Source of the DNA: a virus
Taxonomy: Duplodnaviria; Heunggongvirae; Uroviricota; Caudoviricetes
Length of the DNA: 63,143 nucleotides
Reading direction: 5' to 3' (one strand)
Virus record (IMG/VR): IMGVR_UViG_3300035515_000158
Below the pieces are notes generated by a model. The model saw only the letters and a program-made list of their open reading frames with translations, did not search any database and had not been told where the DNA came from. Below, piece after piece: positions 22,333 through 62,069 of this stretch; the stretch's first letter is position 1; the number at the start of each line of letters is the position of its first letter. Both the position numbers and the translations under genes were made by a program.

Positions 22333-22372
22333 AAATACATTATACAGTTCAATATTAAAAGTAACAAAACCA

Positions 22373-36068: not shown

Positions 36069-36107
36069 AATTAAAATACTTTAGATTTTATATTAAACAT
36101 AACAAAT

Positions 36108-36842: not shown

Positions 36843-37165
36843 TTTTCTGATTTAATTATTTTATTCATGCCCAATAACCAACTTGAATAGTTAACAGGTC
36901 TTTCTTCTTCATCATCATATTTGTAATGATACCACAACATATATTCATCAGGATCAGCATTTAATTCAACATCTAAAATGATGTCTTCCATATATGCAAA
37001 ACTATTCCATTCCTCGATGAATACTATAGTCCCTGTAAATAAACCAACCCAACCCTTTTTCACATCATCAAAACAAAGAGAGTGTTTATCACAAAAAGCC
37101 CGTAAATATTCATTACAGGCTTTTTCATATGTTTTCCAGATATCGGATGAAAACTTACTATCCAT
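36839..37165 (-). CDS. Hypothetical protein
   Basis: 108-aa ORF, coupled to neighbours. Confidence 0.65.
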   Translation of the reverse strand: MDSKFSSDIWKTYEKACNEYLRAFCDKHSLCFDDVKKGWVGLFTGTIVFIEEWNSFAYMEDIILDVELNADPDEYMLWYHYKYDDEEERPVNYSSWLLGMNKIIKSEK

Positions 37166-38718: not shown

Positions 38719-38794
38719 ATCTTTATCAGTTTTAATTTTTTCTTTACTATTATAAAGATAACAACTTTTTTGTTGTTCCCTTTTATTTACAATA

Positions 38795-38826
38795 CAAAGT
38801 TACAAGAAAATTTTTAATCCACCAAA
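38795..38826 (-). promoter_or_regulatory. Bacteroidota sigma-A promoter (-33 TTTG, 20 nt, -7 TAACTTTG)
   Basis: Exact consensus and spacing, upstream of DUF2828 gene. Confidence 0.8.
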
Positions 38827-38830
38827 TTTT

Positions 38831-39832
38831 TTACAAACTTTTTGATGTTAAAACTTGCAAAAACTGTTCCTCAGTTAATTGACACCCAGCCGCTCCTGTA
38901 TGTCCACCACCACCATATTTAGATTTCAGATATTCTCCACAATGGAACTCATCTTCATCATGTGTGTTATATAGTGACAGTGCCCAGTTTCCATCTTTCA
39001 AATGTCTAAATATGATACCATGTCTGTATTCATCTTTAACTTCAGAAAAGTAATTAGAACCATATCCACTGGTTTCAAAAATCACACAAGCTTTATGATC
39101 ACCAGCTACTGTAAAAAGTGAACCATTCTCTCGTACGATTTTATGTCGTTTCAAATCTTCAGTTTTGTTATATCTTTCACCTTGTATTTCAAACTCTCTA
39201 ATCACATCACTTTGTTGGTCTTCTTTGAGTTTATAAGGAAGTGTCCCATTAATGTATTGAACATAATTAGATACATATTCAATAATAGTTTCTGCATCAA
39301 GATTGAACGCATTGTGAACGCCTGTGTTCACATTTCTAACATATTCCTTATCATAACCCCAAATATCAAATGACCATGAATCATAAGCTGACAATATATT
39401 CAATAGTTCAGGGTTAGGTAGACCATTTTCTTCATCATGTGTGTCAAGATTAAAAGGATTATACAACCAGTTCCACATATTAAGAATTGCAGATATTGTT
39501 GTACTTCTCGAACCCTCTATCATACACAGTTTATTTACTTCTTGAATGATAGGTTTGTGGTGATCAATCCAGATTAATTTATTTCCCAACTTTTTATACA
39601 GTTTCTCCATTTGGGGTGCCTTGAATGAAATGTCTGTAATGATAACATTCTCATATGTCTTGAAAAATTGTTTATCAAGACTAATGTTAGATATTTCATT
39701 ATGATTACACCCACTTAAAACTATTTGTTCCTTGGGTACATTCATTACTCTTGTGAGATAATCATACATAATGGCCATCGAAAATAAACCATCATTATCC
39801 TCACGATGATAAATAATAAGATACTGATACAT
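38831..39832 (-). CDS. DHH-family phosphoesterase (NrnB/oligoribonuclease-like)
   Basis: YH..DNDG, TDISF, IWIDHH, GGGGHTGAAG. Confidence 0.85.
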   Translation of the reverse strand: MYQYLIIYHREDNDGLFSMAIMYDYLTRVMNVPKEQIVLSGCNHNEISNISLDKQFFKTYENVIITDISFKAPQMEKLYKKLGNKLIWIDHHKPIIQEVNKLCMIEGSRSTTISAILNMWNWLYNPFNLDTHDEENGLPNPELLNILSAYDSWSFDIWGYDKEYVRNVNTGVHNAFNLDAETIIEYVSNYVQYINGTLPYKLKEDQQSDVIREFEIQGERYNKTEDLKRHKIVRENGSLFTVAGDHKACVIFETSGYGSNYFSEVKDEYRHGIIFRHLKDGNWALSLYNTHDEDEFHCGEYLKSKYGGGGHTGAAGCQLTEEQFLQVLTSKSL

Positions 39833-40299
39833 TATTTTAAACTTCTTTCAAATTCACGTTTCAAATCTCTCTCTTTAATGCTTTGGGATTTGTCATAGGT
39901 TTTCTTACCCTTTACCAGTGCAATGTCAACCTTGGCATACCCATGTTCATTTATATATAACTTAACAGGAACTATTGAATGACCACTTACTTTTATTTTT
40001 TCAGTTAGTTTTTTTAGTTCACGTTTAGTCAATAGTAACTTTCTATCTCGGTTGGGTTCAAGTTTGATATATCCTGAATTGTCATACTCATTGATATACA
40101 GGTTTTTAATATACAATTCACCATTCTCAAAAAAACAGTATGAATCAGTGAAGTTGACCTTACCCAATCGAATGGACTTTATCTCACATCCATTCAATAC
40201 AATACCACTCTGATAATTCTCTAAAATAGTATAGTCAAAATTAGCCTTTCGGTTTTTGGCTACTATTCGATTATTACCCATTATTCGATTTAGATTCAT
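39832..40299 (-). CDS. smpB: SsrA-binding protein SmpB
   Basis: NRKANFDY...GIVLNGCEIKSIR...RDRKLLLTKRE...IALVKGKKTYDK..SIKERD. Confidence 0.97.
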   Translation of the reverse strand: MNLNRIMGNNRIVAKNRKANFDYTILENYQSGIVLNGCEIKSIRLGKVNFTDSYCFFENGELYIKNLYINEYDNSGYIKLEPNRDRKLLLTKRELKKLTEKIKVSGHSIVPVKLYINEHGYAKVDIALVKGKKTYDKSQSIKERDLKREFERSLK

Positions 40300-40301
40300 T
40301 T

Positions 40302-40919
40302 TTACTCTGATTTATAAACATACAACAATGTGGGATTATTGTCATGAATGTCTATTGCTTCCTGATAATTGTCCCTGAATGTTTTTTTGTTAAAGGGTTT
40401 GGTGATGAGGTGATAACCATGAACAGTAGGAATCAAATCAACTACCTTTTCATAGTCCGGTTCACACTTTTCAATTACACTCTTGATTTTCTCGATTTCG
40501 TTTTCGTCTTTCGTGTCAATATCAACTAACCATGTTTTGTTTTTATCACAAGCACCTGTCTGACCACAAGCTGATTCAAAAATGGTCTTGATACCTTTAT
40601 ATTCTTCTAATGAAATCATATGTGCCAAGTTTTCCAATCCTTTCAAACCAACTTGCTTATAGGATTTCTTGTTCAAATTAATATAAGCTCGTGCATTGAA
40701 AATCTTACACAACTCAATTATCTCTTCCATTTTCTGGTCAAGATATTCAGGGGATGATACAAAATAGGATTTGATGGTTTTGTTGGAGAAATTAGTCTTA
40801 CCAGTATCAAACTTTGTCAATCCATCCTTTGAACGGTGAATAATCTGAACAAAGTAAAACTCATTAGTCGACGTAAAATTCATCAACTTCTTAATTTGTT
40901 CTACGTTATTAATTTCCAT
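40302..40919 (-). CDS. Conserved phage protein with AEP-like (primase-polymerase fold) motifs
   Basis: WLVDID and PTVHGYHLIT resemble AEP motifs I and II. Confidence 0.45.
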   Translation of the reverse strand: MEINNVEQIKKLMNFTSTNEFYFVQIIHRSKDGLTKFDTGKTNFSNKTIKSYFVSSPEYLDQKMEEIIELCKIFNARAYINLNKKSYKQVGLKGLENLAHMISLEEYKGIKTIFESACGQTGACDKNKTWLVDIDTKDENEIEKIKSVIEKCEPDYEKVVDLIPTVHGYHLITKPFNKKTFRDNYQEAIDIHDNNPTLLYVYKSE

Positions 40920-40921
40920 AA

Positions 40922-41347
40922 TTATAATTTTTTAACAATAAGATGGTCATTACTATATCTATTTAACTCTGTCACAATATCTTTATGTTTAACAAGTTGC
41001 AGACAAAACTGAGCATCACTTAACTCATCAAATACCTGAATTACTTTTTCATCAAGACTGGTTTTTAATGATGAACTGAACTCATCATTAAAATAGTAAT
41101 TATCAACGGAAATGAACTCAAATAGCATACCTTCCCTTCTGTCGAAAAATGGATAGTCATCTCTGTCTTTTTTATTCTTTTTCCAGTATTCAACAATATC
41201 CATACAAGGTTTCAGATACTTTTTGAATCGCGAACTTCTTGGATTAAATTGGATGATGTATAACCTCCGACAATTATACCTGATATACAGTATTCTATAT
41301 CTTTTGTCGGCATCCTTTCTTAACCGTTTCAGTAGTTTTGTCTTCAT
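40922..41347 (-). CDS. Hypothetical protein (MKTKLLKRLRK leader)
   Basis: 141 aa; N-terminus shared with 57173-57502. Confidence 0.6.
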   Translation of the reverse strand: MKTKLLKRLRKDADKRYRILYIRYNCRRLYIIQFNPRSSRFKKYLKPCMDIVEYWKKNKKDRDDYPFFDRREGMLFEFISVDNYYFNDEFSSSLKTSLDEKVIQVFDELSDAQFCLQLVKHKDIVTELNRYSNDHLIVKKL

Positions 41348-41353
41348 TCGTTT

Positions 41354-41770
41354 TTACCAAAGTTTACCATCAGAGATAAATTCAAGTCCCTGAATCTGTT
41401 CATACTTCTCAATTAAAGGTACAACTTTTTCAATCGCACCATATATGATTCTTTCATCTTCACCAAAACAAGTTGAATTTTTTGATAATGATTCAATCTT
41501 ATATCCTGTCTTAAACCAATCATCAAGGTCTTCAAACTCTTTTTTACATACATCAAAATCAGCAGGTGATGGGAATAATTTAATGGCTTTGTCAAGGACT
41601 TTTTTGTCTGTGGTAATTTCAAGGTCTGCCCTTATATATAAAAGTTCACCACAATCATAGTCATTATATCCATCACGAAACATCTCAATATTATCACCAC
41701 CAATGTCATATCTACCAATATGAAATGTGAATACTGGTCGTTCATCTGATAGTGTAAGCATGTACCTCAT
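41354..41770 (-). CDS. Hypothetical protein
   Basis: 138-aa ORF directly below the sigma-A promoter at 41802-41833. Confidence 0.65.
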   Translation of the reverse strand: MRYMLTLSDERPVFTFHIGRYDIGGDNIEMFRDGYNDYDCGELLYIRADLEITTDKKVLDKAIKLFPSPADFDVCKKEFEDLDDWFKTGYKIESLSKNSTCFGEDERIIYGAIEKVVPLIEKYEQIQGLEFISDGKLW

Positions 41771-41801
41771 ATCTATTATATTTTATTTTTTATTTACATC
41801 A

Positions 41802-41833
41802 CAAAGTTACAATAAATTTTTGAAACTACCAAA
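41802..41833 (-). promoter_or_regulatory. Bacteroidota sigma-A promoter
   Basis: TTTG-N20-TAACTTTG. Confidence 0.8.
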
Positions 41834-41839
41834 TTTTTT

Positions 41840-42403
41840 TCAATTATTTTGATTCATCGCTTCTAAAATTCCACAGATTAAATATACCATCTTGTTAAAT
41901 CCTTCTTCATCAGCATCAACCTCAATGTAATCAATCTTGTCATACTCAGATTCAATTCCTTCCAAATTCAAAATACCCAATATCTTTTTGTCAAGTTCAT
42001 GGGCTTCTTCCTCTGTTTGATTTCTACCATTGGGATTATATGCTTTCTTTCGGTTCAAAAAGAAATTTACATTGTTGGTATCATAACTCATAAATTCTTC
42101 AACAATCGCAGACTTTAAATATTTCTTGTCTGTATAAGCACACCCAATAAGAATAGGTGAATCATTTATAATTACATCAACTTCTCCAAAACAACGACTA
42201 ATCTTAAATGATTGTTTACCAGTGATATACAGTTGATTGTTGAATACCTTCTTATTTTGTTCCCACACTTTATCCTTAGCGAACTCTGATACATACTCAG
42301 CATCAACCCCCATCATTTTAAGACGTGAGAATAGATACGCCGCACAGGTCGATTTTCCTGTACCCGGTCCCCCAAATAAATTAATTATAACTGTGTTCTT
42401 CAT
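41840..42403 (-). CDS. P-loop NTPase, NadR/AAA_28 nucleotide-kinase-like
   Basis: INLFGGPGTGKST, EFAKD, DSP. Confidence 0.8.
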   Translation of the reverse strand: MKNTVIINLFGGPGTGKSTCAAYLFSRLKMMGVDAEYVSEFAKDKVWEQNKKVFNNQLYITGKQSFKISRCFGEVDVIINDSPILIGCAYTDKKYLKSAIVEEFMSYDTNNVNFFLNRKKAYNPNGRNQTEEEAHELDKKILGILNLEGIESEYDKIDYIEVDADEEGFNKMVYLICGILEAMNQNN

Positions 42404-42768
42404 ATTTTTGTAACAAGTGCTTTATATGTGGACATTCCATTAGCCCAACAAAATTTAAAATGGTCTATGTCATCCTTAATCTGTTTTTCAGTATATAGAA
42501 AATAATAAGGATCCTTTTCCTTTTCACTATCACTCATGTTCACACCAAGACGTTTATATACATCTTTCATCCATTCATCAAAACTTCTCCAACGGTCAAA
42601 GTTCTTAACAAATTCTTCATTACTAACTGTGATAAACTCATTTTCATACTCACCAAAACAAAGTTGATAGGTTATTTCATCTTCATCATGGTCAATTAAA
42701 ACAACCTTACAAACTAAAGCATATTGATTCTGAATCCAATAACTTCCGGTTTCAATATTCCAAACCAT
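42400..42768 (-). CDS. Hypothetical protein
   Basis: 122-aa ORF in operon. Confidence 0.6.
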   Translation of the reverse strand: MVWNIETGSYWIQNQYALVCKVVLIDHDEDEITYQLCFGEYENEFITVSNEEFVKNFDRWRSFDEWMKDVYKRLGVNMSDSEKEKDPYYFLYTEKQIKDDIDHFKFCWANGMSTYKALVTKI

Positions 42769-42780
42769 TTTATCTTTATA

Positions 42781-43185
42781 TTAAATTAAACTTCTATACA
42801 TATATTCCATAAAAAGTCCAAACCTACTTCTACGATGAAATTTCGTAATGAATTCTTCTTTAACTAATTCATTAATTTCATTCTCATCTCTGAATTGTTT
42901 CTCCGTCAAAACACCAGCTAAGTGAGGTTTCTTATTTGGTTTGACAGTATAATAATTAATCATACCATCTTCCGCATCTACTATCCAAAACTTAGTTAAC
43001 TCTTTACCATCATTACTGATAACTCCACCTTGTTTTAGATGTTTAACTATTTCATTTATAGTTCTAAAATGAAACTTCTCAAAATGTTCTCGACTAATCT
43101 CAGATTGTTTCTTTTTCTGAGCTTTGTCTTCATCATAAAATTTCTTGATGTTTTCCATCGTTTCTTCTGACATTCTAATTTCCAT
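42781..43185 (-). CDS. Hypothetical protein
   Basis: 134-aa ORF in operon. Confidence 0.6.
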   Translation of the reverse strand: MEIRMSEETMENIKKFYDEDKAQKKKQSEISREHFEKFHFRTINEIVKHLKQGGVISNDGKELTKFWIVDAEDGMINYYTVKPNKKPHLAGVLTEKQFRDENEINELVKEEFITKFHRRSRFGLFMEYMYRSLI

Positions 43186-43432
43186 GTCTAAATTTATCTA
43201 TGTATAACGGCTGATTAAGTTCCTTCTCAATCATCCATGTGGTTCCATCTTTCTCATTAGTTAACCTTTCAACAATGTCAACAATATCAGACAAACGGAG
43301 TCTACTGGTAACTGAACTAAAAGGATTAATGGAACAGAAAACCATGTCCCATTCTTCCTTCCACCCAAGAACTAATCCATATAGACCATCCTTAAATAGA
43401 ACAATATCAAACATCTCAGGTACTAAATCCAT
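43175..43432 (-). CDS. Hypothetical protein
   Basis: 85-aa ORF below TTTGTTATGTTTA motif. Confidence 0.6.
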   Translation of the reverse strand: MDLVPEMFDIVLFKDGLYGLVLGWKEEWDMVFCSINPFSSVTSRLRLSDIVDIVERLTNEKDGTTWMIEKELNQPLYIDKFRHGN

Positions 43433-43522
43433 AAAGAAATAATTTTATAATCTAAACATAACAAAATTGGCCAAGTCATATTTCAAACTTAGCCAATTTA
43501 AATATTAATACTTGTTAAATCT

Positions 43523-44122
43523 TTAAATACTACACACATATAATTCATCATCATTTGTATAAAAACTCATTGATGAATCTGAGCCCGGAGACCATGAACC
43601 AATTTTCAATGAATCATACATCTCATCAATACAGAAAAACATTTTGGTCATCTTATCTAAATCACCTTTATGTTTTTTAATGAAAGTCTTAACATAATTA
43701 AATATCTCCGTATTTAACTGGTCATAAGACTCTGAAATACTATGGTCATCAATACCATATACTGTTAGAACTTTGTAGTCAACATCACTATCTGGTAACT
43801 GACAATTATCATCAATCACATCATTTAGATAGTTCTTAAATAATCCAGTCTCAAAATCTATCTCAAGGGAATAAGAGTAAACTTCATTTTTTAAGGGGTG
43901 TTCGGTGATATAATCTATTATTAGTTGAACAATAGAATGGTGTAAAATTACCCATTCTGAATTCTTTACTTTACTCTTGTTTTCAGTGATGGGCATATCA
44001 TTAATAAAATCATCTTTTCGATTATCTCTCCACCACTTCCTCCCACAAGTTAACTCACTCTGAGACGTTCGTCGCCAACTTTCCTCATGGAAAATGTCGT
44101 AATAATCATCATATGTTTTCAT
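43523..44122 (-). CDS. Hypothetical acidic protein
   Basis: 199-aa ORF. Confidence 0.65.
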   Translation of the reverse strand: MKTYDDYYDIFHEESWRRTSQSELTCGRKWWRDNRKDDFINDMPITENKSKVKNSEWVILHHSIVQLIIDYITEHPLKNEVYSYSLEIDFETGLFKNYLNDVIDDNCQLPDSDVDYKVLTVYGIDDHSISESYDQLNTEIFNYVKTFIKKHKGDLDKMTKMFFCIDEMYDSLKIGSWSPGSDSSMSFYTNDDELYVCSI

Positions 44123-44165
44123 TATATATATTTAAAAGTGTATATCACTACGGGCATTGTCCTGA

Positions 44166-44756
44166 TCAGTAATCATCCGAATCGTCTATTTCATCCAGAT
44201 TGATTTCGTAGTTGTCTTCAAATTCTTCGAGTCGTTTCTTTAATTCATCACTAAATCTACCCTCTCCAAAACTACTCTGGTCGTGACAATGGTCATATAC
44301 ATCAAGGTATATTCTTGCTTTCTCTAACATATACAACGTTTCTTTTAATTTGTCCTTTTCTTCCTGACTATATCTAACATACCAATTTCCATCAGCATAT
44401 ACCATACAATCACTTTCTCTAATCTCATAGTGCATTGGTATAACCTCACCATCAGATGTTGTATATGTTTCATCTCCATGATTTTTATCAACCCACATAT
44501 TGTCACCAGTCCGTTCTAACCACTCAAGACTATTTAACAAATCCTCAGCTTCCTTTCTGGTTTCAAGTTCCTTCAAATCACAAAGATTATATATGTAGTG
44601 AGAAAATTGATAACAATTCTCACCAGTCTTAAACACGATATTAATAAAGTGTTTTTTTACCATATCAGGTATAGTCTGCTCACTTTTCTTAATATCTCTC
44701 TTTAAGGTTTCGATTATTTCATCAAACCTCCATTCAGGTAAATCAAAATATCTCAT
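44166..44756 (-). CDS. Hypothetical protein
   Basis: Start MRYFD gives ATGA overlap with upstream gene. Confidence 0.65.
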   Translation of the reverse strand: MRYFDLPEWRFDEIIETLKRDIKKSEQTIPDMVKKHFINIVFKTGENCYQFSHYIYNLCDLKELETRKEAEDLLNSLEWLERTGDNMWVDKNHGDETYTTSDGEVIPMHYEIRESDCMVYADGNWYVRYSQEEKDKLKETLYMLEKARIYLDVYDHCHDQSSFGEGRFSDELKKRLEEFEDNYEINLDEIDDSDDY

Positions 44757-45169
44757 TTTCTCTTTTCTTTTGTCCAAATTTCACCATCAAAACAAAATAA
44801 AAAATTACTCAGTTCATCATCTTGAACTCTAAGTAAACAACACTCTTTCCCATTAGAAAGTTTATGGTTGAAACAACATTTTTGACAATAATCATAAGGA
44901 TCACCTTTCAATTCACCATCAATGTTAGGATCATATCTTCTAACTCGATATACATGATCCATACAATCCACCATTTCAGTCGTACGATAATGTCCGCTGA
45001 TTGAAGGAATATTATCTCTCAAACAATTAATCTCTACTACTTTCCCATCTTCATCTCGCTTAGTCACTCCATCAAAAAATGAACATCCTTCACAATGACT
45101 CGGCTCAACACCATTTACGGGATAGTATTTACAACTAACATAACTCTTATAAAATACTTCTTTCTTCAT
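44753..45169 (-). CDS. Hypothetical Cys-rich protein
   Basis: CEGCSFF and CQKCCF motifs. Confidence 0.6.
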   Translation of the reverse strand: MKKEVFYKSYVSCKYYPVNGVEPSHCEGCSFFDGVTKRDEDGKVVEINCLRDNIPSISGHYRTTEMVDCMDHVYRVRRYDPNIDGELKGDPYDYCQKCCFNHKLSNGKECCLLRVQDDELSNFLFCFDGEIWTKEKRK

Positions 45170-45171
45170 AA

Positions 45172-45525
45172 TCAAAACCGTTCAAATTTACCACATTTCT
45201 CACATCTATAATAATCATGATGACTGTCACTAAATCTATGTGTAAACTTATGCTCACATTCACCTTGTAAGACTTCTATCTTATCTCCAATCTCTTTTAT
45301 CTCCTTGTCTATATGGTGTAATGTGTAAGCGATATCATTTCGTTGTAGTCTAACTTTATAACTCTCTCCTAACTCATACTCATTAAATAATTCAAGAGCA
45401 ATGTCAAACCTCTTTACTATATCTCTCAATCGTTCAGCTTCCTTTTGTTGTTTTCTCAATCTTTCAACAAGTCCTTTCACTGGCTCCTCTACCATGTCAA
45501 CTTCTAAATCAAAAAACCTATTCAT
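45172..45525 (-). CDS. Hypothetical coiled-coil protein with C-terminal Zn-ribbon
   Basis: CEHKF...RCEKCG. Confidence 0.6.
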   Translation of the reverse strand: MNRFFDLEVDMVEEPVKGLVERLRKQQKEAERLRDIVKRFDIALELFNEYELGESYKVRLQRNDIAYTLHHIDKEIKEIGDKIEVLQGECEHKFTHRFSDSHHDYYRCEKCGKFERF

Positions 45526-45985
45526 TAACGATTTCAAAATTATAATTATTCCAGACTATCTTCCCATCAAATAATAACTTGGACATATAACCCGGATTAT
45601 TCTTAATATTCTCTTTTATCTCATCTTTCAAAATATCATAAGGTGGTTCAGCCAACGGAATTTTTATTATTGTTATCCTGTCTTTTATCACCTTAATGAC
45701 AGCTCGCTTAAATCCATAACCATCATCATTTATCAGGTTATCTAAATCTTCAAATATGGGGATAACACCAAATTCATATAAGTGCTCCATCGTGTATTGC
45801 TCATAATTAATCAGAAATTGGTCATACGTTTCTACATATTTCCTGAACTCCAATTCTTCATCACATACACCTTCTCCCCATCCACAACATTTCTCTATGA
45901 TTTCACTTGGTGTCAATTTAAGTAATCCCTTCGACTCTAATATTAACATTTCGAGTAACACATTCCTTTCTACTTTTCCCATCAC
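45518..45985 (-). CDS. Hypothetical protein
   Basis: 155-aa ORF. Confidence 0.6.
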   Translation of the reverse strand: MMGKVERNVLLEMLILESKGLLKLTPSEIIEKCCGWGEGVCDEELEFRKYVETYDQFLINYEQYTMEHLYEFGVIPIFEDLDNLINDDGYGFKRAVIKVIKDRITIIKIPLAEPPYDILKDEIKENIKNNPGYMSKLLFDGKIVWNNYNFEIVNE

Positions 45986-46075
45986 ATTTTAATAATAACA
46001 AAAATGTGGAGTTAAAATATAGTATCTCCCCCATATTCCAATTCCACATATTATTTTTTTTTCCTTATACTTTAT

Positions 46076-46591
46076 TTATGATTCTACATTTTCGGTTGTT
46101 TCAGTTTTGTTACCACTCTCATCTTTGAATAACTGGTCAAACTTATCCTTGTTCTTAGCCATATATTCTTGCATAGACTTCAACTGCTCATTCGACATAA
46201 CTGAACTAACTACCGCATATGAACCATTATTCAAAGTGAAATCAGACCTCTGCAATAAACTACTGTATCTCAAGGAAGCACACAATACTCCAAATTCAAG
46301 TTCATCTGTCTTCCACTTATTCACAGTTTCATAGACAACCTTCATTCGCTGAGTTCGTTCCTCCTGTGTTTCCAAAGGTGCCTCTTTCTTACACTTACAC
46401 CCTTCTCCACATTGTCCACTACACTCTCCCTTTTCTTCACATTCACATTTCTCTGTTTTCTCAGCTTCATTCAAAGACTCTACTTCACCAGTGTCACCAT
46501 TAGTCACTGCATCTCCACCACAATTTTGGTCTTGTGATAAACTCTCTAAATCAACTTCATTTTCTTTATCAGCTTTCTTCTTTCGTGCCAT
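46076..46591 (-). CDS. Hypothetical protein with Cys-rich patch
   Basis: CECEEKGECSGQCGEGCKC. Confidence 0.65.
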   Translation of the reverse strand: MARKKKADKENEVDLESLSQDQNCGGDAVTNGDTGEVESLNEAEKTEKCECEEKGECSGQCGEGCKCKKEAPLETQEERTQRMKVVYETVNKWKTDELEFGVLCASLRYSSLLQRSDFTLNNGSYAVVSSVMSNEQLKSMQEYMAKNKDKFDQLFKDESGNKTETTENVES

Positions 46592-46604
46592 ATATATCTA
46601 TTTT

Positions 46605-46925
46605 TTAATCTTTATTTTCTCCATTTAATATCGTCGATTTGTAATTCTTAACCCTGTAATAATCAAACAAACCAACCATAGTTCCTGAATATTGTTCCAT
46701 CAACTTCTTCACATTCCCAGCTCGTGCAGTTAATACTTCATGGGGATGTTCTTCATCAATCTCCAATATTACATAACCATTTCCATAGTCCTCACCTTTC
46801 TGCTCAAACTCATTATTTATCCGCTTCTTCTCATCTTGTAAGAACTCTATAATATACTCAAGTATCTCAACAAAAGTATATTTCTCTAATACTAAATCTA
46901 ACTTAATTTTGTCTATATCTTCCAT
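46605..46925 (-). CDS. Hypothetical protein
   Basis: About 106 aa. Confidence 0.6.
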   Translation of the reverse strand: MEDIDKIKLDLVLEKYTFVEILEYIIEFLQDEKKRINNEFEQKGEDYGNGYVILEIDEEHPHEVLTARAGNVKKLMEQYSGTMVGLFDYYRVKNYKSTILNGENKD

Positions 46926-47154
46926 CAAAATAAAACATTATCATAAACATTAATATCATCCACCAGAAAAAGAAACAAACACAAAAATCACCACATAAAT
47001 CTTGTAACCAATCTACATAACGACCAGCATCTACCTCATCTCCATACCTATATCTCTCAGCAAAGTCCATGAAAAACTTAACATGCTTCTCATACCTCCC
47101 CCTCAAAAATACTCCAATTACACCAAGCAAATATATAATAACAAAATATATCAT
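46903..47154 (-). CDS. Small membrane protein (two hydrophobic segments)
   Basis: MIYFVIIYLLGVIGVFL and FCVCFFFWWMILMFMIMFYF; ATGA overlap at 47151-47154. Confidence 0.55.
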   Translation of the reverse strand: MIYFVIIYLLGVIGVFLRGRYEKHVKFFMDFAERYRYGDEVDAGRYVDWLQDLCGDFCVCFFFWWMILMFMIMFYFDGRYRQN

Positions 47155-47282
47155 ACCGCTACCATTAATAAACAAATGAACATGATTACTAAAAATAAAG
47201 TAAATACATAATCAAATCCTAAAGAAATATACCATCCAAGAAATTTCCAGTATAGTGATTTTATCTTATCTATTATCTTCAT
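47151..47282 (-). CDS. Small membrane peptide (43 aa)
   Basis: Read by hand: MKIIDKIKSLYWKFLGWYISLGFDYVFTLFLVIMFICLLMVAV; promoter-like motif at 47302. Confidence 0.5.
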   Translation of the reverse strand: MKIIDKIKSLYWKFLGWYISLGFDYVFTLFLVIMFICLLMVAV

Positions 47283-47317
47283 ATCTTTTTTAACTTTACT
47301 CTAAATATAACAAATAA

Positions 47318-48049
47318 TTAACTCTTAACCACCGTTTCACATATTTCTTTCTGTATCTCTTCTTCTTCCTTTATATATGTGAAATACTTACCTGTCTGAA
47401 TATAAATGTATATCTTCCCATTTACATACCTATCTATTCCCATCACATATACATCATTCTTAGCCATCAATAACGGTATCACATTATGAACAATACACAA
47501 AAAATATACCCCATACTGCTCATGCAACTTGTTCATCATATTCACTACCCCAACAGTCCATTCTAACGATAATCCCTTGTCTATCTCATCAAAGATAATC
47601 AAAGTCTTGTCATTAAATTTGTCCCTGTTGTCCACTAACCATTTCCCTATCAAATTTAACTCACTCTCCCCATTACTCTTGTGCCGATTCATATATCCAC
47701 CATACTCTACATAACTCTCAGCACTCGCACAATTATTCAAACTCTTAGTGTCATCAAATTCACTCGATAAGAAATATATCTTCTCAAAATCCGTCTCTAC
47801 TTCCGACCTCCCCTCAAAATCATCAGAAAACAAATCTCCATAACCTAACTTCGCTCCCCAACCACTCCTGTCCTCTCCTTCATTATCACACTGACGAACT
47901 CGAACACAATTTATCAACGTACTCTTTCCACACCCATTCTTTCCAGTAATATATATGAAAGGCTCACTCTTCCCTTCAAAATCAAACTCATACTCAGTTC
48001 CACCTTTCAATACTCGCAAATCTTCCTTTATCTTTATCTTTATCTTCAT
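47318..48049 (-). CDS. ABC-type ATPase (stand-alone)
   Basis: GKNGCGKST, signature-like SNGE, LIIFDEIDKGL, H-loop VHN. Confidence 0.75.
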   Translation of the reverse strand: MKIKIKIKEDLRVLKGGTEYEFDFEGKSEPFIYITGKNGCGKSTLINCVRVRQCDNEGEDRSGWGAKLGYGDLFSDDFEGRSEVETDFEKIYFLSSEFDDTKSLNNCASAESYVEYGGYMNRHKSNGESELNLIGKWLVDNRDKFNDKTLIIFDEIDKGLSLEWTVGVVNMMNKLHEQYGVYFLCIVHNVIPLLMAKNDVYVMGIDRYVNGKIYIYIQTGKYFTYIKEEEEIQKEICETVVKS

Positions 48050-48792
48050 CTCTTTTTCCTTTTTTTATTATTCGTTACATCTTCTATGAATACCTCAAAC
48101 CAATCCTTACTGATATTACTTAAAGGATATCCTCCAATCCTTCCTCTCGGCTTGTATTCTACCCCAGCCTCTCGATACCACTTGTAATTTATTGATATGT
48201 GACTGTCATACTTTACCCGGTCACAATATTTCTTCAATAACTTCTTATAAGTACGTATATCTACTAATATCCATCCTCCACTCTCAGCCAATATCTCACT
48301 CCGCTTCGCTACTTCAACAAAATGACACCATATATTTCCACTATACTTAAATGTCCTCGGCTCATTCTCTATTACCCAACTACTCTCAACATACGACTTC
48401 CCCATCTCCCATCCTAATGTTTGTGTATCTTCATCTAAACAAAACCTACTAACATCATATGGATCTATCCCCTTAAATAACTTCTTATACTTTCCTCGCC
48501 ATTCCTTGTGATACTGATTCTTCTCATCAAACCACTCATAAAATAAATCAACTTGTCGTATCTTTAACTTCTTCCCATTCTCATCTTTCAGAAACTTCCG
48601 TCGACCATTCACAATATTTCCACTCCCAACTCCACCTAATAAAAAACTCTCTACAAAACCATGAGGAAAAGCATAAATACCCCACTCAACAGGGGCACTA
48701 TGAAATCCTGTACCATACTCCTTATGATACTGCGGAATCAAATTTCCCCACCTCTTAAATTCCACCTCTAATTTTTTCACAACTTTCTTCAT
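48046..48792 (-). CDS. Hypothetical protein
   Basis: 248-aa ORF. Confidence 0.6.
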   Translation of the reverse strand: MKKVVKKLEVEFKRWGNLIPQYHKEYGTGFHSAPVEWGIYAFPHGFVESFLLGGVGSGNIVNGRRKFLKDENGKKLKIRQVDLFYEWFDEKNQYHKEWRGKYKKLFKGIDPYDVSRFCLDEDTQTLGWEMGKSYVESSWVIENEPRTFKYSGNIWCHFVEVAKRSEILAESGGWILVDIRTYKKLLKKYCDRVKYDSHISINYKWYREAGVEYKPRGRIGGYPLSNISKDWFEVFIEDVTNNKKRKKR

Positions 48793-49411
48793 CTACTCTT
48801 GCGTTCTTTACTTGGCCTATTTCATCCCATTTCTTTACTATAATACAATCACTACATATTCCCTTTAAGTATAAGTCATCATCAGTCATCATTTCTATTG
48901 CGACAACCTCTCCATTTAACCCTATATCTACTCTATGTAATTTATTGACATTATATTCAAATACCAAATCTCCAACCTCTATCAATTCTCCTTTCCTATC
49001 TCTACATCCAGTGTCTCCACCTAAATGCCCTCCTATTATACTTCGCCAATCACTATTCATGTGTTCCCTATACTCAGCTAAATCAGGACATTCAGTATAT
49101 TCCCTATCTCGTTGCCCATATCCCCAATCATAAAAATTACCCCCATAATAACTGTATAAAACAATTACAGTATAGGGTGCATTCTTACAGTAATATTCAT
49201 ACCCTGACATATTACCATAACTATCTTCATAACTCTCATTATCTTTATTATATTTGACATCTGTTTCTTCTTTCCAATTCATATCTAATATCCTAAGAAA
49301 ATGCTTGTCAAATTCTAAAAAATCAAAACAACGAGGATCTAATTCACTCAAAACATCCCTTACTTCCTTCAAGATGTTTTCCTTCCTTAAATCAAAATAA
49401 AATCTATTCAT
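48755..49411 (-). CDS. Hypothetical protein, C-terminus YopX-like
   Basis: TGCRDRKGELIEVGDLV resembles the YopX motif. Confidence 0.5.
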   Translation of the reverse strand: MNRFYFDLRKENILKEVRDVLSELDPRCFDFLEFDKHFLRILDMNWKEETDVKYNKDNESYEDSYGNMSGYEYYCKNAPYTVIVLYSYYGGNFYDWGYGQRDREYTECPDLAEYREHMNSDWRSIIGGHLGGDTGCRDRKGELIEVGDLVFEYNVNKLHRVDIGLNGEVVAIEMMTDDDLYLKGICSDCIIVKKWDEIGQVKNARVDEESCEKIRGGI

Positions 49412-49429
49412 ACTTAAAACATAACAAAA

Positions 49430-50150
49430 ACGGACATCCCCTCACTTTTTTCAACCCATTTTTTTATTCCCACATTATTTTTTAACATTTCTGTAATATT
49501 AATGTAAAATTATGTCTTTTTTATCTATATATTTTATTATTGAATTTTTTTGTAATCTATTTATACTGAGCTAATTAAATTCAAAAATATATACCCAATT
49601 TTTTAACTCAATTTTGTCAGATTTGTTTCAATTTATTTTTAATTTATTTTAATTTGTTTCAATTTATTTTTAATTTACTGAGCCAAGATCTAGCCTTCTT
49701 TGATTGATTCTGAATACCCCCTAAAAAACCCTAATTTTAGCTAATTTTACCCCCTTCCCAAAATAGGCCAAAAATACCCCAAAATTAGCGTTTTTTACAT
49801 ATCCTAAAAATACCCCAAAATTAGCTTATTTTACCCCCTCAGAAATTAGCTCATTTTACCCCTTTGAAAAACCACCCCTCCAACTCAGGACAGACCGGAA
49901 ATGTAGTTTTCACAGATTTCCACAGATTTCCAAGAATTCCAAAAAAGTGTAAAATATGGTAAAAAAGGGGAATAAAATAAGCTAAGTAAAAAAGAGGTAA
50001 AAAGTGTAAAAATAGGTAAAAAGTAAGAAAGGGGAAAAACATGGAAAATAGTGAAAAAATGTGTCTTAAAATTAGCTAAGTAAAAAAGAGGTAAAAATGG
50101 GAAAAATCGTAAAATCGTTCGTATAGTAAAATAGGTAAATGTGAGGAAAT
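49430..50150. other. Putative replication-origin core: AT-rich tract plus direct and inverted short repeats at a GC-skew switch
   Basis: 26-bp AT repeat x2 (49621, 49652); 20-bp repeat x2 (49770, 49806); TTTTACC x3 left versus GGTAAAA x4 right; CACAGATTTC x2 (49911-49930); 24-bp repeat x2 (49980, 50074). Confidence 0.5.
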
Positions 50151-50159
50151 AGGGTTAAT

Positions 50160-52540
50160 ATGTATCTGGGGGTTATTTACTGGGCTGAGGAATCTGGTAT
50201 CTGGAAGTCTGGGGTGTATATCTGGGGGTTAATATATCCGGTATGGTAGATATGGGGGTGGATGAGTAGTAGTTTCGTCATTCGTATCGTGAGGGAAAGG
50301 GAGAGGAATGGTAAAGAGGGTTAAGTTGAGGAAGGGGGATGGACAGTTATATGGGTTGAGTTCTGGTCAGCTGAGTCTGGGGACTGGGTTAAGATGACAA
50401 AATGAAAGTAAAAGAGGGGATTTACTTACATGCTTATAAAAAATCCCCAGAGTTTTTCTTCAGGAGGTGACAAAATGAAAGTAAAAATAGGGATATAGTA
50501 ACAAAATGTCAAATGGGATAGTAGTTTCGTTTATCGTATCGTGATGAGATATGGGTTCTTGGTTAGCTGAGTTCTTGGACAGTGGTATGAAATTTGATGA
50601 AGGGGATGTGATGAGTTTGGTGATATTGGACTGAGCTGCGGGAATGAGATAAATCAGGAACAGGGGGACTTGGGTGGAGAACAGGGAGTAGAAAAGATAA
50701 TCTGAGTCGGGGAAGGGGAATGGACAGAAGTGGGTTTAGTAGTTTCGTCTATCGTAGTTCGTGTTAATCAGTGGGATGAGATTTGATGAGGTTCGAGTCA
50801 GTGAAGGAGGAATGGACAGTCGGTTCTGGGGACTTGGGTTGAGTTCTGGTCAGCTGAGTCTGGGACAACGGGATGAGATTTGAGAGAGATGAGACTCCGG
50901 AGATGGAATGAGTAGAGAAGTCTTGGGTTGGTGGTGTAAACTTGGGGACATTGGACTGTGCTGTGGAAATGAAATGATGACCGGGGTGGAATTAGGGAAT
51001 GGGGAATCCTGTTGTGGTGTGCTGGACAATATTAGGAACAGGGGACTGAGGTGGGGAACAGGGAGTAGAAAAGATGATATGAGTCGGGGAATGGGAATAG
51101 AAAGAAGAAAGAAGTCTTGGTTCTTGGGTTTCGTTATTCGTATCGTGGTGGAAATAGAATGGACAGTGAGATGAGATTTGATGAAGGGTGGTTTCTTGGA
51201 CAGCTGAGTCGGAGAAGGGGAATGGTGTGGAATCTGGAAAACTGGAATCCTGTTGTGGTGTGTTGGACAATATCAGGAACAGGGAAGTTGGATTGGAGGT
51301 AATGTGAGCTGAGTCGGAGAAGGAGGAATGGACAGTCGAGATGAGTAGATTAGATTTGGGTTTCGTCTATCGTTATTCGTGTTAGTCAGTGGGATGAGAT
51401 TTGATGAGGTTCGAGTCAGTGAAGGGGAATGGTCAGTTGGTTTTGGATACTTGGGTGGAGTCTGGACATCGGGATGAGGAATGAAGATGGGTTCTGGATA
51501 CCGTTAGATTTAGTGAGCTTGGTTCTGGGGTTGAGGTATATTTGGTCAGCTGAGTCTGGTTAGTAGAGATGAGTAGATGTCTTGGTTTAGTAGTTTCGTT
51601 ATTCGTATCGTGATGAGATGAGGGTAGTCAGTGATATGAGATTTGATGGAGGTGGGTTCTGGTTCTGGATACTTGGTCAGGTTGAGTCTGGGAATGGTGA
51701 CTGGTGTGGAAGATGAAGTCCTGAGATGGAATCCTGTTATGGTGTGTTGGACAATATTAGGAACAGGGGACTAAGATGAGAACAGGGAGTAGAAAAGATA
51801 ATCTGAGTCGGAGAAGGGGAATGGACAACGAGATGAGATTTGGGTTTCGTTATTCGTGTCGTGTTGGTCAGTGGTATGAGATTTGATGAAGGGTGGAGTT
51901 CTTGGTCAGTTGAGTCTGGTTTGGATTAGAGATGGAATGAGTAGAGAAGTCTTGGGTTAAGTTATCGTTTCTCGTAGTTCGTGTGGAGATTGACTGAGAT
52001 GAGGAATGAAGATGGGTTCTGGATACTTGGGTTGAGTTCTGGTCCGCTGAGTCTGGTTGGGAATAGATGTCTTGGATTGGTGTGTAAACTTGGGGACTTG
52101 GACTGGGTTGAGGAAGATGGGTTCTGGATAACTTGGAGGAATGAAGTTTGGGTGGAATCTGGAAAACTGGAATCCTGTGGAGATGTGCTGGACAATATCA
52201 GGAACAGGGAAGTGGGATTGGGAACAGGGAAGTAAAGTGGGCTGAGTCCGGTTAGTAGTAATGAGTAGACGACTTGGGTTTAGGTTTCGTCATTCGTATC
52301 GTGATGAGATGAGGGTTAAGTTGGAGAAGGGGAATGGACATTTGGTTCTGGATACTTGGGTGGAGTCTGGGAACAACGGGATGAGATTTGATGAAGGGGT
52401 GGAATGATCCTGGAACTGTTGAGGTATCCGGGATGAGGAATGAAGATGGGTTCTGGTTCTGGGAGCTTGGGTTATCTGGGGTCATCCTGTTTCTGGTGAG
52501 CTGAGTCTGGGGACTGAGATGGAAAACAGGGAGGGTTGAA
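50160..52540 (+). repeat. G-rich, C-poor non-coding array of shuffled 15-40 bp modules
   Basis: Recurrent GTTTCGTnnTTCGTATCGTG, CAGCTGAGTCTGG, GATGAGATTTGATGA, GGAGAAGGGGAATGGACAG, GAATCCTGTT..GGACAATATYAGGAACAGGG. Confidence 0.9.
50395..50511 (+). repeat. 117-bp direct repeat, copy 1
   Basis: 14 mismatches, no gaps, against 52542-52658. Confidence 0.95.
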
Positions 52541-52541
52541 A

Positions 52542-52658
52542 TGACAAAATGAAAGTAAAATGAGGGTTTTACTTACACACATAAGAAAAATCCCCTGAGT
52601 TTTTCTTCAGGAGGTGTCAAAATGAAAGTAAAAATCAGGAAATAGTAACAAAATGTCA
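52542..52658 (+). repeat. 117-bp direct repeat, copy 2
   Basis: TGACA...TGTCA ends; internal TG(A/T)CAAAATGAAAGTAAAA x2. Confidence 0.95.
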
Positions 52659-52663
52659 GAATA

Positions 52664-52703
52664 CAAAAAAAAACAATCCCTCAGAAGAAATCCAAGGGAT
52701 TGT
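52664..52703 (-). terminator. Intrinsic terminator ending the early-region transcript before the array
   Basis: ACAATCCCT/AGGGATTGT stem followed on the minus strand by a T run. Confidence 0.75.
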
Positions 52704-52865
52704 GTGACATATTCAGAAAGTTAGGTTAGCACATTTTACAATAATAGCATACTGTGTAATGATTAGTTTAAGGTCTGATTATGTCAGCATATGTAATGAT
52801 GGTCAAAATAAGGATGGTCATAAACTTGGCGAAAAGTCGTGCGAAGAAAAGACCACAGATGGAAA

Positions 52866-53321
52866 CTAAAGGTTGATGGTCAGGTTTTCGATGTTGATAT
52901 TAATCGTGATGCCTGAATTAGTTTCCGTTTCATTACATGCGTCTGTTTCCGGGGTTAGATTTACTGTATCGTCGGTAGAAGCAGAAGTAGTAATAGGGGA
53001 TGGTTTGAACAGTATGCAGTCATCGAGAGATACTAAACCATTTTCATATAGAGTCTGTTCGAGTTTTTTGAATTTATCCTTGGCGTAGAAGTTAACCAAG
53101 AACGGGTCGAACAGTCTGAATTGATTATAATTGAGGGTGTCATTATATGTGAACCCAAACTTATCGAGGAAGACACATTCATAAAGGAATAGGTATCCTC
53201 CTTTATATCTTTTAGTGACAACATTCATGATTTTTCCATGTTCGCCTTTCGTATTCGTAATGATGAGGTCGAATTGTTTAGGTGTGTTTGAGAAATCAGA
53301 TGTCGTAGAAGCTGTTTCCAT
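52866..53321 (-). CDS. Hypothetical protein
   Basis: 151-aa ORF. Confidence 0.55.
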   Translation of the reverse strand: METASTTSDFSNTPKQFDLIITNTKGEHGKIMNVVTKRYKGGYLFLYECVFLDKFGFTYNDTLNYNQFRLFDPFLVNFYAKDKFKKLEQTLYENGLVSLDDCILFKPSPITTSASTDDTVNLTPETDACNETETNSGITININIENLTINL

Positions 53322-53583
53322 TTAGTTTATATTTTATTTCAGATGTACAACAAGGACAACGATATGTGAAAAATTGATAAAGAGGTTGGTTAGGTACCTT
53401 GGCTGATGTTAGACAAGGAGAAGAAGTACCTTTAAATCTATTCCTTGGGCCGGACAGACATTCATCATAACAGTCATGTAATTCCATATCGCTACCACAG
53501 ATTGGACATGATTTGATATCGTATGGATAGAACTTGTGACCATTTACCTCTACGAGTGATGGAGAGATATCAATGTTTTCCAT
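53296..53583 (-). CDS. Small Zn-ribbon protein
   Basis: CPICG...CPCC. Confidence 0.6.
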   Translation of the reverse strand: MENIDISPSLVEVNGHKFYPYDIKSCPICGSDMELHDCYDECLSGPRNRFKGTSSPCLTSAKVPNQPLYQFFTYRCPCCTSEIKYKLNGNSFYDI

Positions 53584-53594
53584 ATCACTGAAAG

Positions 53595-53957
53595 TTAACT
53601 GTTGGACAGAGGGATGTTATTGTCGAGAAGATAACGGATGCAGTTAAAGACAACATCAACGAAATCCAGACCGTTACATTTTTGGAAGTCGGCGTCAGTG
53701 GTTTTTGGATCACTGTAATCCACATAACCTTCATAAATTTGTTCCCAATTCGGTCCGGAAGAAATACTGATTCCGTTGTGTAATTCCATCAGGGCGGAAA
53801 GAGACCAAGCGGGAATATCATCAGGTCCCATTGAGTAATCCTGTTTAGCCAAGAGATATTTACCTGTTACTGAGTAGAACATATCAGCAGTTTCAACAGG
53901 GACATCTTTAGATAGGAGAAACTCAGATTGTTGAATTGAGGTAGCTATTTTATTCAT
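53595..53957 (-). CDS. Hypothetical protein, paralog of 58507-58980
   Basis: TSIQQS..LL....ETAD...PAWSLSALM. Confidence 0.65.
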   Translation of the reverse strand: MNKIATSIQQSEFLLSKDVPVETADMFYSVTGKYLLAKQDYSMGPDDIPAWSLSALMELHNGISISSGPNWEQIYEGYVDYSDPKTTDADFQKCNGLDFVDVVFNCIRYLLDNNIPLSNS

Positions 53958-53959
53958 GA

Positions 53960-54304
53960 TTATTTCTTTTTTGAGCGATTATTTTTCGTAACGACTTCTT
54001 GTTCAAAATAGGGGTCATACCAGTTAAGGATACCGCCATCTTCATTGATTAGATAAACCCAGTAACCTTCTTCGAGTGGATTACCTTTGTTGTCTCTGGA
54101 TTCGCCACTGATCCACCGAGCTTCAATTATTTCTACTGTTTTACCAGCGAAGTCGGAGTAAGGAGGATACCATAGTTCATCTTCTTCATCAGGGTCACAG
54201 ATAATCAGAGGTTCATCATATCCGGGGCAAACTTTAGAGAGAGATGATAGGTCTTTGACTTTTACTTTGTCACCTACCTTGAAGTGGTTATTTGTTCTGT
54301 CCAT
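53960..54304 (-). CDS. Hypothetical protein with KOW/SH3-like domain shared with the paralog family
   Basis: FKVGDKVKVK...FAGKTVEI...YLINEDGG. Confidence 0.6.
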   Translation of the reverse strand: MDRTNNHFKVGDKVKVKDLSSLSKVCPGYDEPLIICDPDEEDELWYPPYSDFAGKTVEIIEARWISGESRDNKGNPLEEGYWVYLINEDGGILNWYDPYFEQEVVTKNNRSKKK

Positions 54305-54339: not shown

Positions 54340-54495
54340 TTACGGAAGAGTTCCACTTTGGTTGTTCCATTTTCGAGGGGGAGTCTCAACAACCTCAAAG
54401 TCGGTATATACATTGTCATTGATTTTGACATTACCGTTGATGATATGTTGATTATAAGCGGCCATCATTGAAAGACCTAAGAACATGCGTTTCAT
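54340..54495 (-). CDS. Small early peptide (51 aa, MKRMFLGLSMM...)
   Basis: Read by hand; sits directly under the duplicated promoter/5'UTR module. Confidence 0.5.
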   Translation of the reverse strand: MKRMFLGLSMMAAYNQHIINGNVKINDNVYTDFEVVETPPRKWNNQSGTLP

Positions 54496-54541
54496 TGTTT
54501 TTTGTTTTTTAGAGAGTTAAACTTGTTTTCTTTTTACATTA

Positions 54542-54573
54542 CAAAGATACTTGATTTTTTTGACTTGACCAAA
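54542..54573 (-). promoter_or_regulatory. Bacteroidota sigma-A promoter
   Basis: TTTG-N20-TATCTTTG. Confidence 0.8.
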
Positions 54574-54625
54574 TTTTAAGTGCTAAAAATTTGTTAAATC
54601 TTTTTTCAATCATCTTTTCAATGTT

Positions 54626-54928
54626 CTACTTTTTATCAGCTATGTCTTCAAGCAACATAGAGGGGAGTATCATGTCCTCATTAATTTCAATCACATTATC
54701 ATCTTTTTTATCAGCTATGTCTTCAAGCAACATAGAGGGGAGTATCATGTCCTCATTAATTTCAATCACATTATCATCTTTTTTATCAGCTATGTCTTCA
54801 AGCAACATAGAGGGGAGTATATTGTCATAATTGGGTTCAATATTTTCGATTTCACGTGCAAGGTCGCGAAGTATCTTGTCATAACCAATATTGTTATTTA
54901 CTTTGTTGCGTTTAGTTGTTTTTTTCAT
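54626..54928 (-). CDS. Early protein with 25-aa tandem repeat
   Basis: ILPSMLLEDIADKKDDNVIEINEDM x2.5; same promoter/UTR module upstream. Confidence 0.6.
   Translation of the reverse strand: MKKTTKRNKVNNNIGYDKILRDLAREIENIEPNYDNILPSMLLEDIADKKDDNVIEINEDMILPSMLLEDIADKKDDNVIEINEDMILPSMLLEDIADKK
54629..54820. repeat. 75-bp perfect tandem repeat, about 2.5 copies
   Basis: ttttatcagctatgtc at 54631, 54706, 54781. Confidence 0.95.
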
Positions 54929-54973
54929 TGTTTTTGTTTTTTAGAGAGTTAAACTTGTTTTCTTTTTACATTA

Positions 54974-55005
54974 CAAAGATACAAGTTTTTCTCAACATCT
55001 CCAAA
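54974..55005 (-). promoter_or_regulatory. Bacteroidota sigma-A promoter
   Basis: TTTG-N20-TATCTTTG. Confidence 0.8.
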
Positions 55006-55863: not shown

Positions 55864-55895
55864 CAAATGTACAAGAAAAAATTCAATTCTCCAAA
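55864..55895 (-). promoter_or_regulatory. Bacteroidota sigma-A promoter inside a 20-bp inverted repeat
   Basis: TTTG-N20-TACATTTG. Confidence 0.75.
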
Positions 55896-62037: not shown

Positions 62038-62069
62038 CAAAGTTACTGGTTTTTTCTGACTTCTCCAAA
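62038..62069 (-). promoter_or_regulatory. Bacteroidota sigma-A promoter
   Basis: TTTG-N20-TAACTTTG. Confidence 0.8.

Follow-up and report, generated by a model that had tools for sequence, protein, structure and literature searches.

A window of 63,143 nucleotides (nt) from an uncultured phage (IMG/VR record IMGVR_UViG_3300035515_000158), part of a 351,598-bp metagenomic contig, carries two direct copies of a 126-bp non-coding element within a gene-free, G-rich array. As judged from natural sequence variation among related contigs, these two copies are real recombination substrates for the 2.1-kb interval that separates them. In a sister lineage of the phage this interval is missing, and a single element remains that is a chimera of the two copies. 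The element pair described in the original prediction was confirmed, the part of that prediction concerning recombination is supported by the natural variation, and the element is conserved; the roles proposed for it are putative. On balance, we consider it probable that the two elements are old paralogous copies of one non-coding cassette that is maintained by selection, recombines and would act in cis.

Two gapless copies of one cassette

The original prediction described two copies of 117 bp, at 50395-50511 and 52542-52658, that align without gaps with 14 mismatches and are A-rich within a G-rich array, and both our alignment and the base composition bore this out. We found that the similarity runs 9 nt further to the left, giving elements of 126 nt (copy 1, 50386-50511; copy 2, 52533-52658; both on the plus strand) with 16 mismatches, and that the copies have diverged by 12% over their whole length. 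The two elements are in direct orientation and their starts are 2,147 bp apart; 235 nt of array precede copy 1, while copy 2 ends the array on the right. The elements are 43.7% A and 20-21% G, and the array is 23-25% A, 37-39% G and 8-9% C. The core ACAAAATGAAAGTAAAA occurs four times in the window, all within the two copies, where 0.17 occurrences were expected from shuffled sequence and none of 100 shuffles reached four. A profile built from seven versions of the element and searched with nhmmer against the 63-kb window found just the two copies (E = 1e-40 and 6e-38), and no decayed copies of the element in the array.

Each copy contains the 19-mer TG(A/T)CAAAATGAAAGTAAAA twice, 73 nt apart, with a half box ACAAAATGTCA 31 nt beyond; these spacings of box starts, 73 and 31 nt, approximate seven and three helical turns. 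In copy 1, box A1 (TGACAAAATGAAAGTAAAA) is located at 50395-50413, box A2, which is the same 19-mer, at 50468-50486 and the half box at 50501-50511. The corresponding positions in copy 2 are 52542-52560 for box A1, 52615-52633 for box A2, here a TGTCA variant, and 52648-52658 for the half box, with all boxes on the plus strand. Two hairpins had been proposed, each imperfect in one copy, and this was also confirmed: GGGGATTT/AAATCCCC pairs perfectly in copy 1 and has a bulge in copy 2, and CCTGA/TCAGG pairs perfectly in copy 2 and is interrupted in copy 1. Two further claims held only in part. The TGACA...TGTCA ends are present in the copies of the window, but they are not conserved, as the copy-1 ortholog in the divergent strain represented by contig L023 ends TGACA, and the similarity continues past the supposed left end. 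Similarly, the 17-mer GCTGAGTCTGGGGACTG is found upstream of both copies, but it directly abuts only copy 1 (50370-50386); at copy 2 it sits at 52500-52516, with 17 extra nt between.

A sister lineage with the interval deleted

We picked contigs by their exact encoding of the flanking proteins. In at least six samples a 3,454-bp region matches the window at 100% identity; the array-form samples include JGI 3300035517, 3300035520, 3300043019 and 3300043021, and SRR11794470 and SRR11794475. In a sister lineage the same flanking genes are only about 1.2 kb apart, with one element between them and 2,147 bp missing. This lineage comprises contigs L015, L016, L017 and L112-L114 (JGI 3300043081 and 3300035500, and SRR11793810). 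Its flanks, represented by at least 10 contigs from two assembly sources, are about 96-99% identical to the window, and it shows its own substitutions throughout. Alignment of L015 and L016 to the window stops at 50514 and restarts at 52533, and 130 nt therefore match both copies. The missing DNA is the G-rich, C-poor array between the copies (50512-52532, plus strand) together with one element length, and the array stub to the left of copy 1 (50151-50385, plus strand) is retained. The single remaining element is a chimera: the 10 diagnostic sites on the left, through alignment column 53, all have the letters of copy 1, and all those on the right, from column 85, have the letters of copy 2.

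The junction was assembled separately in the JGI contigs and in the Logan contig L017, which is 100% identical to L015, and this independent assembly excludes an assembly artefact. The open reading frame (ORF) spanning the junction, P0017, was found on 10 contigs, and the array ORFs P0007 and P0009 on 12 contigs. The original prediction had suggested that the copies could serve as recombination sites for excision of the 2.1-kb interval, and a natural deletion lineage with an element that is copy 1 on the left and copy 2 on the right supports this suggestion. Amplification of the interval, circles and joints did not show up among the few contigs from two sequencing runs, in which the array had no coverage beyond one RNA-library contig, a result that weighs neither way. 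Since the deletion lineage persists in several samples, the 2,147-bp interval is dispensable. Logan contigs L014 and L017 break near box A1, which might have indicated a mixture of forms; we rejected this reading, as k-mer repeats or local polymorphism explain the breaks equally well.

The polarity of the change could be determined from more distant strains. Strains from SRR10148552 and SRR10148553, 89-93% identical to the window, contain an ortholog of copy 1 (L023) and orthologs of copy 2 (L021 and L022), with array beside each, and copy-specific letters at columns 47, 49, 52, 53, 85 and 109 are common to the orthologs. Since both copies have orthologs in these strains with shared copy-specific letters, the duplication is older than these strains and the form with one copy arose by deletion.

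The crossover interval corresponds to columns 54-84, at 50439-50469 in copy 1 and 52586-52616 in copy 2, as the single copy in L015 is the same as copy 1 through column 53 and as copy 2 from column 85 onwards. A strict reading by the letters of the window would narrow this to 50439-50448, the 10-nt core AAAAATCCCC. We considered this core as a sign of site specificity and rejected it, because the mismatch that bounds it, at column 64, is private to copy 1 of the window: A is present solely there, and T in copy 1 of L023 and in every copy 2. The whole of columns 54-84 was therefore probably identical in the ancestor, a block that at 31 nt is the longest in the element. A crossover in the longest block of identity fits ordinary homologous recombination, and we infer that the exchange was probably of this kind, as in T4, and not the work of a dedicated site-specific system. 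UvsW and an AAA_23 ATPase domain (a weak match, possibly Rad50-like) are encoded nearby. For the called genes within 10 kb on either side, no integrase, resolvase, transposase or invertase family is on record, and the Pfam families that are on record there are YopX, DUF723, AAA_23, AAA_28, SmpB and DHH only. Other exact repeats, 29-30 nt long, occur in the array, and indels between strains abound there, suggesting that the region as a whole is recombination-prone. The Logan contigs of array-form samples pass through both elements without branching; together with the 1-4% divergence of the flanks, this suggests a single old event and not frequent switching.

For this uncultured Bacteroidota phage of about 350 kb, the two forms of the locus provide a clean natural case of how repeats can mediate the loss of a non-coding array of 2 kb, and the junction could be placed within 31 nt. 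They also constitute a ready-made comparison of the phage with and without its array.

The two lineages differ at a second place, 54430-54956. Here, the deletion lineage lacks a 100-amino-acid ORF (54626-54928) in which 75 bp are perfectly repeated in tandem (2.5 copies, 54630-54820), and instead has about 170 other bases and a 110-amino-acid ORF.

Conservation and possible function of the cassette

All seven versions of the element are of equal length, with no indels, whereas the surrounding array is indel-rich. Copy 1 is 88.9% identical to its L023 ortholog, and copy 2 is 95-98% identical to its orthologs in L019, L021 and L022, with no gap columns in any of these comparisons. For the same strain pairs, coding DNA shows 92-96% identity with 0-1 gap columns, and the array is 36-39% identical beside copy 1, with many gap columns, and 80-84% identical beside copy 2, with some gap columns (gaps counted as differences in both cases). 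The array thus evolves much faster than the cassette embedded in it. An element free of indels amid an indel-rich array suggests selection and a constraint on spacing; the original prediction had proposed such a constraint from the conserved length, and the homologous loci do keep that length. In the strain of SRR10148553 (L023, positions 450-722), the array to the left of copy 1, equivalent to 50151-50385 of the window, is about 220 nt longer and contains extra modules. With this expansion, the length of the array varies on both sides of the conserved element.

Under the explanation that we favour, selection would keep the length of the cassette fixed while the G-rich array around it changes fast, close to the point where strand composition switches in a Bacteroidota phage of about 350 kb. 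Being direct repeats, the copies recombine, and in one natural lineage an exchange inside a shared block of at most 31 nt removed 2,147 bp and left one hybrid copy. In the cassette itself, terminator-like hairpins that overlap and have A- and T-tracts on either side would be combined with three ACAAAATG boxes that are candidates for protein binding. More tentatively, it may act in cis, marking the boundary or the 3' end of a rightward non-coding unit, with putative protein-binding boxes; we regard this specific role as possible, though less likely than not. This suggestion comes from the position of the cassette at the end of such a unit, from the A- and T-tracts that border its hairpins on both strands and, weakly, from RNA: a 230-nt gut metatranscriptome contig covers 52366-52585 exactly, running from the array into copy 2 and ending in hairpin 1. 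The 10 letters that precede this match in the RNA-library contig fit another array module junction, and the strain in that sample seems to have yet another arrangement of the array.

Several results weigh against this reading. Three overlapping hairpins can be drawn in the element, and on the minus strand of copy 2 one of them was marked as resembling a terminator. However, the element folds are no more stable than shuffled sequence (z-scores -1.7 to +0.5), and in a covariation analysis across the homologs neither hairpin covaried, with no compensatory changes in either across the versions. The intrinsic terminator of the convergent minus-strand operon (52673-52703, minus strand), a strong terminator located 15 nt past copy 2, does show a compensatory A-T to G-C double change in its stem in strains L021 and L022 (the 92% strains), and covariation here in the same strains provides an internal control for the lack of it in the element hairpins. 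Host-type early promoters (TTTG-N17-21-TAnnTTTG) and late promoters (CATAAATA) were both absent from 49412-52865, so that a rightward transcript is hypothetical. A candidate third box in the hub is inverted, at 49601-49619 in an AT-rich tract, and agrees at 15 of 19 positions (P about 0.1, not significant). No protein that would bind the candidate boxes emerged from the data, and only one recombinant lineage is known, with its crossover within a block of at most 31 nt.

The original prediction also raised the possibility of initiator iterons, in which the 19-bp boxes would bind a replication initiator as part of an origin at the skew switch. There is some resemblance to the iterons of lambda ori, P1 oriR and pPS10-type replicons, with helically phased, conserved direct repeats of about 19 bp close to a composition switch and an AT-rich tract: the elements lie on the G-rich arm of a hub where the skew changes sign, their boxes keep a near-integral helical-turn spacing, with no indels in the seven versions, and the non-significant inverted box at 49601-49619 falls in the AT-rich tract. 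Classical iterons, however, are tight tandem sets beside an unwinding element, whereas the two full boxes of each element (2.5 with the half box) are 73 nt apart, with the half box a further 31 nt away, and the two cassettes are separated by 2.1 kb and lie 0.5 and 2.7 kb from the AT-rich tract at 49480-49680. The putative replicase ORF (20518-22458, minus strand, 646 amino acids), which the original prediction took for a ColE2-type primase-replicase, matches no Pfam family at E <= 0.001, and a lineage with half the boxes persists. With sparse boxes, a distant AT-rich core and a replicase candidate lacking a Pfam match, the iteron claim found no support, and we regard it as unlikely. A dedicated recombination function of the elements is less probable again. 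In its strict form, the elements would be attachment sites like attL and attR, between which a dedicated recombinase excises and reinserts a 2.1-kb module. The precise, reciprocal-looking junction lies within the element, over the hairpin region, both forms occur in the same sample series, and, as with attL and attR, two partly identical direct sites bracket a segment that is precisely absent in a relative with one hybrid site. However, no recombinase family is on record nearby, the crossover fits the longest identity block, and the gene-less segment is built from module families that also occur outside it, to the left of copy 1. Attachment sites share a core between unrelated arms, whereas these copies have diverged throughout, and the flank divergence and unbranched contigs described above speak for one old event. 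We consider this form very unlikely. Only slightly better, and still quite unlikely, is the broader proposal that the cassette is a dedicated boundary and recombination site, by which the 2-kb array could be removed and re-inserted beside an origin/early-promoter hub through a circular intermediate. If true, it would amount to a programmed presence/absence switch for a non-coding array, perhaps one that forms R-loops or acts as a protein sponge.

The remaining readings concern the element itself. It might be a functionless relic of an old segmental duplication of the array, its sole effect being deletions. No function for the element emerged from the analysis, and the array does evolve by duplication and shuffling of modules, but the elements are free of indels and conserved like coding DNA amid indel-riddled flanks in the same strain pairs, and the paralogs keep two boxes of 19-20 nt identical although their duplication predates strain divergence of at least 10%. 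A mere relic is therefore very improbable. The suggestion that the element encodes a small RNA or mini-protein draws on the resemblance of ACAAAATG to the A-rich start contexts of the genes of this phage, on a frame of 7-8 codons (MKVKI...) that opens at box A2 in all versions and on the RNA-library contig that overlaps copy 2. The frames at boxes A1 and A3, however, are not conserved, with a stop after four codons in copy 2 and no ATG in copy 1 of L023, neither known promoter class lies upstream, and the folds behave like shuffles without covariation. In Rfam 15 there was no match at the gathering score, and relaxing the threshold to E <= 5 gave just two rows at chance level. We hold this reading to be highly improbable. 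Finally, the TGACA...TGTCA ends in the copies of the window could suggest a mobile element resembling a miniature inverted-repeat transposable element, and boxes that flank a central region are found in some packaging (pac) sites. The inverted ends are, however, only 5 nt and are not kept in the L023 ortholog of copy 1, the similarity continues 9 nt past the supposed end, and the flanks show no target-site duplication. There are two copies in 63 kb, both in the array, with no relative in phage, viral or metagenome collections, and nothing links the locus to terminase. A packaging site, which the original prediction had also put forward, is without anything that points to it, and we regard both of these readings as having almost no probability.

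A blastn search in distant mode found no match to 49400-52900 in the phage collection, and the exact element pattern was not found in viral_contigs. The flanking proteins had no relatives in viral_contigs, and a search of 5.8 billion proteins retrieved only the 90% cluster to which the protein itself belongs. The box pattern GGTGNCAAAATGAAAGTAAAA gave 46 matches in metagenome_contigs and 41 in viral_contigs, two collections that do not contain the contigs of this phage itself. We rejected these matches as candidates: nearly all are gene starts (a ribosome-binding site followed by MKVK), mostly from gut phages, none are alike beyond 27-34 nt and none is a relative.

Known systems and genomic setting

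The closest analogue of the cassette is the promoter-early stem-loop (PeSL) cassette of T4-type phages, a repeated non-coding motif of promoter and stem-loop (PMC2839356, Arbiol et al. 2010; PMC4122927, Comeau et al. 2014). Recombination between nearby PeSLs deletes or swaps the intervening DNA and differentiates close relatives, and mini-circles have been detected; a PeSL carries a strong host-type early promoter and is placed immediately before small ORFs, and a genome has about 50 of them (PMC2839356; PMC4122927). Such mini-circles correspond to the circular excision product named in the original prediction. The element is similar in being a short, repeated, composite non-coding motif with stem-loops in a T4-related phage, and in the recombination between copies that produced the 2,147-bp deletion and the chimeric element of L015, L016 and L017. 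However, it lacks a host-type promoter on either strand throughout 49412-52865, it flanks a gene-free array and not small ORFs, and it is present in two copies in the 63-kb window as opposed to tens per genome. For the stable stem-loop that acts as terminator or attenuator in PeSLs, the element has candidate counterparts in its predicted hairpins, which show no covariation and a shuffle-like stability. The element is therefore like PeSLs in its recombination, and is not a member of that group. PeSL-style modular shuffling, known from enterobacterial T4-type phages, may operate in distant huge phages by means of a different kind of cassette. The Moraphage lineage (PMC12619734) reaches up to 307 kb, and the paper describes no such region.

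Bidirectional intrinsic terminators offer another comparison. The element has a G/C-cored hairpin with an A-rich run before it and a T-rich run after it, which makes each strand read as a hairpin followed by a T-tract, and is located where convergent units meet. However, its stems are short, with a 17-nt loop, and are imperfect in some copies, in addition to the lack of covariation and the shuffle-like stability. Termination signals in Bacteroidota are poorly defined.

The cassette lies in a gene-free region (49412-52865) of a window that encodes phage genes including a UvsW helicase, an amidase endolysin and an HNH/DUF723 endonuclease; no tRNA was found. Six near-identical early promoters, TTTG-N19-TAnnTTTG (TTTGG..-N-..TTGTA(A/T)CTTTG), are located on the minus strand, upstream of minus-strand genes, at 38795-38826, 41802-41833, 54542-54573, 54974-55005, 55864-55895 and 62038-62069. 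These promoters are of the Bacteroidota type, which indicates a Bacteroidota host. The late genes, on the plus strand, follow a hairpin and (T)CATAAATA.

The gene-free hub proper (49412-50150) contains the change of sign in GC skew, which flips from about -0.6 to +0.6 near 49.9 kb. The skew is about -0.13 at 35 kb, declines steadily to -0.63 at 48 kb, stands at +0.6 in the array and fades by 54 kb. This profile over 35000-54000 indicates that the depletion of C affects the coding genes of the left arm as well as the non-coding array. The indel-free cassette offers the best handle on whichever protein or process acts at this unusual hub, where composition flips and both diverging arms are poor in C.

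Shuffled modules make up the G-rich array, which spans 50151-52532. No open frame runs through it under any single stop reassignment; with TAA as the sole stop, the longest covers 439 of 794 codons. The motif GAGTC occurs 17 times in 50151-52532, or 7.1 per kb against 0.3 per kb elsewhere, where 2.0 +/- 1.4 occurrences were expected from composition; these counts are not independent, because the majority of sites fall in a recurring GCTGAGTC module. GATC is almost missing from the same stretch, with one occurrence against 5.7 expected. At the right-hand border, the A-run beside the terminator at 52673-52703 has a length of 9 nt in the window, against 7 nt in the other lineages.

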